Assembly: GCF_003334255.1 (NCBI RefSeq)
Contig: NZ_QOWU01000120.1
From: Escherichia coli
Lineage (GTDB): Bacteria; Pseudomonadota; Gammaproteobacteria; Enterobacterales; Enterobacteriaceae
Direction: 5' to 3' (one strand)
DNA: 3,480 nt
The translations under genes were made by a program, and so were the position numbers. Shown here in pieces: positions 1,596 to 2,924 of this stretch. How positions within the stretch are numbered: the first letter of the stretch is position 1; each line of letters begins with the position of its first letter. The notes under the pieces were generated by a model. It was not told where the DNA came from and searched no databases. It saw only the letters and a program-made list of their open reading frames with translations.

Positions 1596-1783
1596 GAGAC
1601 GCAGAGGGGAAGTTGCGTCCATTTTACCGGGAACGGAGCAAAAAACCGCCATTCATACCCTGTATCAATCAGTGTCATCCTGTTTAATCGTCGTTTCCGC
1701 TCATATGGTGCACAAGGGGTGTTGAAGAAACATCCGTTTTGTGGTGCTTTTTTAGTCTTTTGGGGATTTAAATTCCTATCGAT
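422..1783 (+). mobile_element. IS91-family (HUH rolling-circle) insertion sequence, 5' end truncated by the IS3-family element; right (ori-side) boundary approximate
   Basis: Contains an IS91-type transposase gene. The right boundary is inferred from the change to AT-rich mcbF-like coding sequence and from CAAG tetranucleotides at 1713-1716 and 1784-1787, the IS91-family target. The exact end is uncertain between about 1712 and 1787. Confidence 0.6.
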
Positions 1784-2357
1784 CAAGGGCGGAGTAAGTA
1801 ATTATGAGGGGACCCTCAAGCGTAATTTCTCTGGTGGAGAATTAGTAAGTCTACCTCAAGTCATAAATCTTTCAGGTACACTAAGGAATGAGGAGGTTCT
1901 TGATTTGATTTGTTGCTTCAATAAGTTAACTAAAAAACAGGCATGGGCAGAGCTTAATCATAAATGGAATGATAATTTTTTTATTCGCTATGATAAAATA
2001 AGTCGTAAAAGGACTTACACGGTAAGTTATGGGGAGAAGCGTTGGCTTATCATATCTTTGATGCTAACGCTTTGCAAAAATGCCCGTTTATTTTTACTGG
2101 ATGAACCAACTGTAGGCATTGATATTCAGTACAGAATGATGTTATGGGAACTGATAAATAAGATCACCGCAGACGGGAAAACGGTATTTTTCTCAACTCA
2201 TATTTTTGATGAACTAACAAGAGATAAAATCCCCTTCTATATGCTTTCAAAAAATGGTATAAATCGTTATTCTGATATGAGTGATTTTATTCAATCTAAT
2301 AATGAAACAACTCCAGAAAAGGCATTTGTTAAAGAAGTTATGGGAACAGGGGACTGA
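1719..2357 (+). pseudogene. mcbF: 5'-truncated ABC transporter ATP-binding protein, McbF-like (microcin B17 export/immunity ATPase); Walker A absent
   Basis: The ORF has a Q-loop-like VSLPQ, a degenerate signature SYGEKRW, Walker B LFLLDEP and an H-loop STHIF, but no GxxGxGK[ST] and no in-frame ATG before about codon 114. It is AT-rich and ends 4 bp before the pentapeptide-repeat gene, matching the mcbF-mcbG arrangement. Homology probably starts near 1785-1790; the first roughly 20 codons may be junction sequence. Confidence 0.6.
2347..2352 (+). promoter_or_regulatory. Shine-Dalgarno-like AGGGGA for the mcbG-like gene
   Basis: AGGGGA lies 8 nt upstream of ATG 2361. The upstream ORF stop (TGA 2355-2357) is 3 nt before the ATG, an arrangement compatible with translational coupling. 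Confidence 0.5.
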
Positions 2358-2360
2358 GAC

Positions 2361-2924
2361 ATGGATATAACAGAAAAAAGAATCACACAACGACACCTCA
2401 ATGAAGGTGAATTATCAGGTGTAAATTATTATAATTGTATATTTGAACGAATACAGCTTGACAATTTTAAGTTTCGCGATTGTGAGTTCGAAAAATGTCG
2501 CTTCGTAAACTGCTCAATAAAGAATTTAAAACTTAACTTTTTTAAACTTATTGACTGTGAATTCAAAGATTGTTTGTTACAAGGAGTTAATGCAGCAGAC
2601 ATTATGTTTCCTTGTACTTTTTCTCTTGTAAGTTGTGATTTGAGATTTGTTGATTTTATTGGTTTAAGGTTACAGAAATCTATTTTTTTATCCAGTCACT
2701 TCCGTGATTGTTTATTTGAGGAAACAGACCTTCGTAAATCTGATTTTACAGGTTCAGCGTTTAATAATACAGAGTTCAGACATTCTGATTTGTCTCACTG
2801 TGATTTTTCAATGACAGAAGGCCTCGATATAAATCCTGAGATAAACAGGATCTTATCTATAAAGATACCACAGGAAGCAGGTTTAAAAATACTTAAACGA
2901 ATGGGAGTGGTTGTAGGGGGATGA
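2361..2924 (+). CDS. mcbG: Pentapeptide-repeat protein, McbG-like (microcin B17 immunity / DNA gyrase protection, Qnr-related fold)
   Basis: 187-aa ORF with ATG start and RBS. It shows a clear 5-residue periodicity with F/L/I at the central position (NCIFE RIQLD NFKFR DCEFE KCRFV NCSIK NLKLN ...) over more than 25 consecutive pentads. The 187-aa length and the position right after an ABC ATPase match what I recall of McbG. Confidence 0.85.
   Translation: MDITEKRITQRHLNEGELSGVNYYNCIFERIQLDNFKFRDCEFEKCRFVNCSIKNLKLNFFKLIDCEFKDCLLQGVNAADIMFPCTFSLVSCDLRFVDFIGLRLQKSIFLSSHFRDCLFEETDLRKSDFTGSAFNNTEFRHSDLSHCDFSMTEGLDINPEINRILSIKIPQEAGLKILKRMGVVVGG

Follow-up and report, generated by a model that had tools for sequence, protein, structure and literature searches.

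An intact, orphaned mcbG in the remaining 3' part of a variant microcin B17 operon between insertion sequences on an IncK2/Z plasmid of Escherichia coli

Operons of the mcbABCDEFG type, which combine production of microcin B17 (MccB17) with immunity to it, end in mcbG, a gene for a pentapeptide-repeat protein. Expressed alone from pBAD, McbG raises the minimal inhibitory concentration (MIC) of MccB17 >26-fold and that of albicidin ~5-fold, and upon arabinose over-expression it raises that of ciprofloxacin 4-8 fold; pentapeptide-repeat proteins each protect best against their own toxin (PMC7897471). According to PMC6722960, McbG alone gives partial immunity, the remainder coming from the McbEF pump (citing Garrido 1988), and a plasmid with mcbEFG brought quinolone increases of 2-8 fold (citing Lomovskaya 1996). 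A survey of natural microcin resistance came upon two MccB17-resistant E. coli whose only mcb genes were mcbG and an orthologue of mcbF, with transposase sequence on the flanks; the authors read this as immunity transferred without production (Telhig et al., 2024; PMC10926693). Here we analyse a locus of this kind in a 3,480-nt stretch of Escherichia coli DNA (contig NZ_QOWU01000120.1; 'the window' below means the whole of this stretch), where an intact mcbG follows a truncated mcbF between insertion sequences (IS). The protein is a known one and so is the kind of situation, an orphan mcbG with an mcbF relative in MccB17-resistant E. coli having been reported in that survey; what we add are the exact breakpoints, the chimeric ATPase open reading frame (ORF), the variant parental operon, the history of decay in place and approximate frequencies for two orphan classes.

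What the window carries is the 3' end left over from a variant microcin B17 operon, located on an IncK2/Z plasmid. As the pMccB17-type reference we used the operon of pMS20673B (locus L002), which is complete with seven genes (precursor, McbB, SagB-ThcOx dehydrogenase, YcaO, McbE, ABC ATPase and pentapeptide-repeat protein). Its McbA precursor, 69 aa long and rich in Gly, Ser and Cys, carries the annotation 'microcin B17 family TOMM', and its gene order and neighbours agree with the published map of pMccB17 (PMC10912980). A second complete operon, on pSCU-111-2 (locus L005), is a variant with 97.7% identity to the canonical one. Over 1212 bases, window positions 1782-2993 differ from L005 7422-8633 by 9 mismatches and no gap (99.26% identity), and positions 1782-2978 match L002 8001-9197 at 96.7%, also ungapped. 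The mcb genes of the matching E. coli G8 plasmid (NZ_CP060058.1) and those of pSCU-111-2 share their order and orientation relative to a neighbouring DUF6404-hypothetical-hypothetical block. The features on which the argument rests are, in window coordinates:

1782-2993, plus strand: whole mcb-derived segment, made up of the last 576 bp of mcbF, the mcbG gene and a conserved stretch of 69 bp downstream of it
2361-2924, plus strand: mcbG, intact pentapeptide-repeat immunity gene of 187 aa (ORF, Pfam, alignment to intact operons)
1719-2357, plus strand: chimeric ORF of 212 aa, with 21 IS91-derived codons followed by McbF residues 53-243 (alignment to McbF of L002)
422 to ~1787, plus strand: IS91-family element with a frameshifted, inactivated transposase (NCBIfam transpos_IS91)
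2994-3183, plus strand: putative C-terminal fragment of an IS66-family transposase, right border of the mcb remnant (short model match and annotation in other plasmids)
1991-1999, plus strand: candidate internal promoter, extended -10 TGATAAAAT, in the mcbF stump (best candidate of a permissive scan)

Judged by its sequence, the 187-aa protein is McbG, the ortholog of the last gene of mcbABCDEFG operons. An earlier reading of this DNA (the original prediction) had pointed out an intact mcbG-like pentapeptide-repeat gene at 2361-2924, and this gene indeed proves near-identical to mcbG of intact operons: its product shares 186 of 187 residues with the protein of pSCU-111-2, the single difference being R113H, and 177 of 187 (94.7%) with the pMccB17-type protein of L002. 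Since nine of the ten substitutions relative to canonical McbG are common to the intact pSCU-111-2 operon, they represent lineage variation of a working operon. The remaining one, R113H, is private to the window and affects a residue that is variable across the McbG family (R/K/N/S/G/I in a 20-sequence alignment at 66-99% identity); in the same alignment the window protein keeps the family-invariant residues in 61 of 61 columns. The Pfam pentapeptide-repeat domains PF00805, PF13599 and PF13576 are all recognised in the product, and the same McbG protein, WP_012605137.1, is found in G8, pECOED and pDETEC45. The gene context is also that of the operon, as the mcbF' stop TGA (2355-2357) is separated by a 3-nt spacer (GAC) from the mcbG ATG at 2361 on the same strand, with the same 3-nt spacer in L002 (8576/8580) and L005 (7997/8001). 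A Shine-Dalgarno-like GGGGA is placed 8 nt 5' of the ATG.

The next-best named family is Qnr, whose members share only ~23% identity with the window protein, which is therefore much closer to McbG. Membership of the Qnr family was rejected on this identity and on scores far under the curated cutoffs, both for the NCBIfam Qnr model NF033086 (45.9 bits against 240) and for the Qnr subfamily models (22-38 bits against 425-500). The Hailong HalA anti-phage effector was likewise rejected: the NF051894 score is 39.2 bits (cutoff 250) and comes from the repeats only, and PADLOC gave no match. McbG is predicted to fold as a right-handed quadrilateral β-helix of pentapeptide repeats with a C-terminal helix. 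The AlphaFold2 model, built from the 20-sequence alignment, has a mean predicted local distance difference test score (pLDDT) of 90.4 and a predicted template-modelling score (pTM) of 0.85, with the C-terminal helix at 171-180, and its best Foldseek match is AlbG (2xt4_A; template-modelling score 0.93, 1.9 Å over 186 columns). A sequence search among solved structures found no McbG, the closest entries being AlbG and QnrB1. The modelled fold is the same as that of Qnr, in agreement with the structural kinship suggested originally.

What is left of mcbF then? Intact McbF has 243 aa, and the ORF preceding mcbG covers residues 53-243 with four substitutions and without internal frameshift or stop. 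Residues 1-52 have been lost, and with them the Walker A motif (GENGAGKT); 21 codons from the IS91 end stand in their place, while the signature, Walker B (LFLLDEPT) and H-loop regions are retained; ABC ATPase models align only over the C-terminal two thirds, from about residue 45. The original description of a decayed McbF-like ATPase was thus right as to McbF origin, although the ORF is more exactly 5'-truncated and fused to IS91. Because both the P-loop and the McbE partner are missing, the chimeric product is predicted to be non-functional and could be neither an ATPase nor a working exporter subunit. The Prokaryotic Genome Annotation Pipeline names this ORF 'AAA family ATPase' (WP_225374590.1, WP_233010594.1); since Walker A is absent and the start lies in IS-derived sequence, the label on the IS91::mcbF' chimera is probably an annotation artefact.

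The element on the 5' side belongs to the IS91 family (HUH/Y2), as had been proposed, both by the match of its transposase to NCBIfam transpos_IS91 (NF033538; 231 bits against a cutoff of 125, model positions 20-296) and by its end at a CAAG target. The transposase is split over two frames (ORFs 497-1474 and 1335-1595), the second frame giving a further match of 22 bits over model positions 299-355. The end sequence at 1700-1787 is found again at many E. coli plasmid sites. In the window it abuts CAAG (1784-1787) inside mcbF at codon 52/53, with the junction ambiguous within ATCAAG (1782-1787). CAAG is the complement of CTTG, the preferred target of IS91; the variant mcbF has it owing to the R54K codon, whereas canonical mcbF does not. 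Beyond mcbG, the homology with intact operons continues for 69 bp after the stop, as far as 2993, and 2925-2993 is still DNA of the mcb plasmid. The IS66 fragment that was expected on this side is supported only by a 30-residue match to transpos_IS66 (NCBIfam; model positions 356-385 of 387, 26.2 bits, under the cutoff of 180), as would suit a short C-terminal stump, and by the IS66 annotation of the 2994-3183 segment in other plasmids, but it begins at ~2994 and not directly after mcbG. The borders are sharp also in GC content, with 32-35% in the mcb segment versus 49-54% in the flanking IS DNA.

Lost from the upstream part are mcbA, mcbBCD and mcbE, as well as the beginning of mcbF, which encodes Walker A. 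The remnant sits at the ancestral operon position, which indicates that it decayed in place rather than having been captured from elsewhere, and the data point to one IS-mediated deletion that was then inherited vertically, not to a cassette hopping between plasmids.

The matching plasmids tell more about the replicon. Window positions 78-3480 are found in the 99.8-kb (99,817-bp) plasmid NZ_CP060058.1 of E. coli G8 at 99.97-100% identity, with at most one mismatch, and this plasmid is of replicon type IncK2/Z (PLSDB typing). Positions 422-3480 match pECOED of strain ED1a and three more E. coli plasmids at 99.8-99.9% identity. The flanks of the mcb remnant and the replicon type are the same in G8, pECOED and pDETEC45, and all window-type carriers share one IncK2/Z backbone, that of the pECOED lineage. 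The carrier hosts include isolates from healthy people, and plasmids with orphan mcbG stem from several countries and hosts.

The absence of the precursor, synthetase and McbE-type genes, noted originally for the window, holds for the whole plasmid and for the G8 genome as well. In a tblastn search with McbA-G against the entire 99,817-bp G8 plasmid, only McbF residues 53-243 and McbG matched, and mcbA-E were absent from both the window and the plasmid. Besides this plasmid, G8 has a chromosome of 5.30 Mb and two small plasmids, one of 1.5 kb and a 7.1-kb colicin S4 plasmid, pSYM12 (NZ_CP060059.1), whose name suggests that G8 may be one of the Symbioflor 2 probiotic strains of E. coli. Of 5,426 complete E. 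coli genomes, none has a chromosomal match to mcbA-E. Because the mcbG plasmid is without mcbA-E, no chromosomal mcbA-E is known among these genomes and the other two plasmids cannot hold mcbA-E, the biosynthesis genes are missing from the G8 genome and mcbG is orphaned at genome level; an intact mcbA-E set with an intact mcbF elsewhere, which the original prediction had considered as one challenge to it, does not exist in G8. A complete mcbABCDEFG system for production and immunity is therefore not what this strain carries. The genome-level check concerns G8, while pECOED and pDETEC45 were compared over 27-kb loci and the other carriers by a match of window length. At most two of these other carriers could have a second replicon with mcbG, as the collection contains just three genomes with two such replicons.

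Among the 5,426 complete genomes mcbG is present in 133 (~2.5%), on a plasmid in every case, and mcbA-E in 111 (112 records), at least 80% complete in 101. Roughly 20-30 of the 133 mcbG genomes are without a complete biosynthesis set. A second orphan class (L003 5935-6889) shows 100% identity over its junction among 18 records; these belong to 17 genomes, for the most part of poultry isolates, with plasmids of 130-190 kb. This class descends from the canonical lineage, its McbG being 2 aa from the canonical protein. Its 5' breakpoint corresponds to window position 1899, an additional 135 bp are deleted inside mcbF, the IS91-family element is inverted relative to the window, and IS1414 is found downstream. 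As operon lineage, breakpoint and IS91 orientation all differ, the two classes arose independently: orphaning happened at least twice, with mcbG spared and mcbF wrecked each time.

Two further operons deserve mention beside these. The pSCU-111-2 variant has 3-11 substitutions in each of McbB-G, and its McbA (L005 3429-3629) is 66 aa long with a 7-Gly linker, versus 10 Gly in the canonical precursor; its product could be a separate congener of MccB17, with an immunity protein that varies along with it. A more diverged mcb-like operon, with McbG ~72% identical and DNA ~76-80% identical, is found on plasmids of E. coli (pSA53IncF, L004 4494-8561) and of Klebsiella. In pSA53IncF an IS3-family element has removed mcbA and mcbB, making it another partly decayed operon.

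In our opinion it is on balance probable that the 3' remnant of the variant MccB17 operon is more than debris, with an intact mcbG that gives immunity if transcribed. The toxin genes are gone together with the natural promoters, the IS91-family element sitting at mcbF codon 52/53, and in this scenario mcbG would be transcribed by read-through from the IS mosaic or from a weak promoter in the retained mcbF stump. McbG would then fold as a DNA-like right-handed β-helix, act on DNA gyrase and release or exclude MccB17, and the host would be shielded from MccB17-producing competitors without making the toxin. Any rise in fluoroquinolone MIC would be small at most, and the McbF stump would be inert. 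By analogy with the canonical protein, functional immunity from the window copy appears likely, and the immunity and quinolone effects that had been suggested for it would agree with the published experiments on canonical McbG.

The weak point of this scenario is transcription, and several observations weigh against it. The native mcb promoters, which Genilloud and co-workers are said to have placed in 1989 upstream of mcbA and within mcbC, would both lie in regions deleted from the window. A consensus scan for σ70-like sites found none on the plus strand of the whole window, and a permissive scan gave weak candidates only, with 8-9 of 12 matches. The best of them, the extended -10 TGATAAAAT, is conserved in L002, L003 and L005 and lies inside the mcbF segment kept by both orphan classes, which is suggestive, although as a promoter it would be weak and remains speculative. 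A hairpin followed by a T-rich tract (1717-1735, plus strand) in the IS91 end might limit read-through from the IS; folding z-scores are unremarkable both for this end (-0.8) and for the 3' tail of mcbG (-1.0). Selection on the gene does not help the case either: divergence from the intact relative is <1%, at which an intact ORF is expected by chance without selection, and therefore the intact mcbG ORF alone is no evidence of selection, while the changes private to the window in mcbG (one non-synonymous, two synonymous) are too few for a ratio of non-synonymous to synonymous substitution rates. Finally, the published link to a phenotype concerns two strains, C4743 and C4747.

Several of these observations are what a silent relic would lead one to expect, that is recent debris of an IS-mediated deletion, with no useful transcription and no benefit, in which there has been too little time for mcbG to decay. 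We consider this possible but somewhat unlikely. The lack of a predicted plus-strand promoter, the loss of the operon promoters with the upstream genes and the recent divergence implied by 99.26% identity to an intact operon all fit it, as does the surrounding mosaic of dead IS pieces (the frameshifted IS91 tnpA and the IS66 and IS3 stumps), and with a single plasmid lineage for all window-type carriers, persistence could be explained by hitch-hiking. However, strains of the same gene content are MccB17-resistant (PMC10926693), and orphans persist in plasmids across several countries and hosts. Two independent orphanings have moreover spared mcbG exactly, with mcbF destroyed to unequal extents, which is harder to reconcile with a gene of no use.

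Two other explanations assign a different role to the locus, and we regard both as very improbable. ISCR1 is associated with qnr genes, to which the IS91-family neighbour of mcbG can be likened, and the orphan might be kept mainly for lowered fluoroquinolone susceptibility, as an emerging qnr-like protection. The ciprofloxacin effect of over-expressed McbG (PMC7897471) and the quinolone increases with the mcbEFG plasmid (PMC6722960) would speak for this, yet the effect of McbG on its cognate toxin MccB17 is far stronger than that on ciprofloxacin (PMC7897471), the protein failed the Qnr model and has low identity to Qnr, its carriers include isolates of healthy people and expression in the window context is probably low. 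The second explanation sees a mobile immunity cassette, in which one-ended rolling-circle transposition let the IS91-family element take up mcbF'-mcbG and carry it from plasmid to plasmid. An IS91-family element is indeed present at the 5' breakpoint in both orphan classes, and in the window its end abuts CAAG, in line with the target preference generally known for IS91. Transfer of the immunity gene has also been proposed (PMC10926693). Against this stand the frameshift in the IS91 transposase, the restriction of window-type copies to the same IncK2/Z backbone with identical flanks and the position of the remnant next to the DUF6404 block, where the ancestral operon was; nor is there a shared cassette, as the two orphan classes differ in breakpoints and operon lineages. 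A bolder version of the immunity reading would have orphan mcbG actively retained, with a cryptic promoter in the mcbF stump common to both classes (1899-2181), as a 'cheater' immunity of the gut in at least two plasmid lineages and an IS91-linked step towards a free-standing, qnr-like gyrase-protection gene. We find this doubtful. The preferred reading remains the plainer one, of an operon remnant whose mcbG would confer immunity if transcribed.

The remaining features of the window, and one pair of genes found nearby in matching plasmids, are as follows:

1-77, strand not assigned: terminal part of an IS30 copy (100% identity to positions 32227-32303 of the G8 plasmid, the end of an annotated IS30 transposase gene elsewhere on that plasmid)
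78-421, minus strand: IS3-family fragment beside the IS91-family element (annotated as IS3 family transposase in NZ_CP060058.1)
3404-3480, strand not assigned: end of a second IS3-family element (97% identity to an IS3-family end in L004; IS1203-type annotation in matching plasmids)
L001 9782-10659, L012 and L013 10700-11577: colicin stump and immunity gene (annotation)

Compared with NZ_CP060058.1, the window has an extra IS30 inside its IS3 element, and the IS30 end at 1-77 marks the left break of the IS3 fragment. The fragment at 78-421 is missing from pECOED and pDETEC45, whose match to the window begins at 422. It contains, at 231-353 on the minus strand, a full-length Rfam match to isrC (RF01387, an Hfq-binding small RNA family), which scores 150 bits where 39 is the gathering score. 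About 2 kb 5' of the mcb remnant in the matching plasmids, annotation places a 'colicin E1 family immunity protein' of 115 aa beside a 'colicin-like pore-forming protein'. With 170 aa, the latter is far below the usual length of pore-forming colicins, and an NCBIfam scan of the stump, the immunity gene and a 121-aa ORF was uninformative. This pair may represent a second bacteriocin module cut down to an immunity gene and a stump.

Orphan immunity genes of this kind matter in two ways, neither of them new in principle. They shift bacteriocin warfare in the gut, conferring toxin resistance without the cost of production, and as MccB17 is studied as a template for new gyrase poisons, a free-standing mcbG on plasmids represents a ready reservoir of resistance. 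The cross-protection of McbG against ciprofloxacin is small and was seen under over-expression.

How does the locus compare with known systems? The closest is McbG of pMccB17 (Garrido et al., 1988), which like the window protein has 187 aa and is encoded by the last gene, 3 nt after mcbF and followed by the same 54-69 bp of downstream DNA; the window copy, in contrast, has lost its connection to mcbA-E, to a complete mcbF and to the promoters of the operon. The two MccB17-resistant strains of Telhig et al. (2024; PMC10926693), C4743 and C4747, share with it the gene content, a flanking transposase and the lack of biosynthesis genes. The resistance was measured in these two strains, whose orphans may be of the window type, of the L003 type or of a third. 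AlbG (PDB 2XT2, 2XT4), the albicidin self-resistance protein and best structural match, is like McbG an immunity factor of a producer that protects gyrase, but it shares only ~20% identity, serves against another cognate toxin and has a loop at 91-97 which McbG lacks. In E. coli LR05, MccV immunity is found in a strain that does not make the toxin (cited in PMC10926693), a similar case of an immunity determinant that has outlasted its toxin genes or was never accompanied by them; McbG differs from immunity of this type by protecting an intracellular target and not by blocking a membrane-acting toxin. QnrA, QnrB, QnrS and QnrVC resemble McbG in their fold, their DNA gyrase target, their location on plasmids and their low-level quinolone protection, and are set apart from it by the low sequence identity given above and by the toxin-specific protection that McbG affords.

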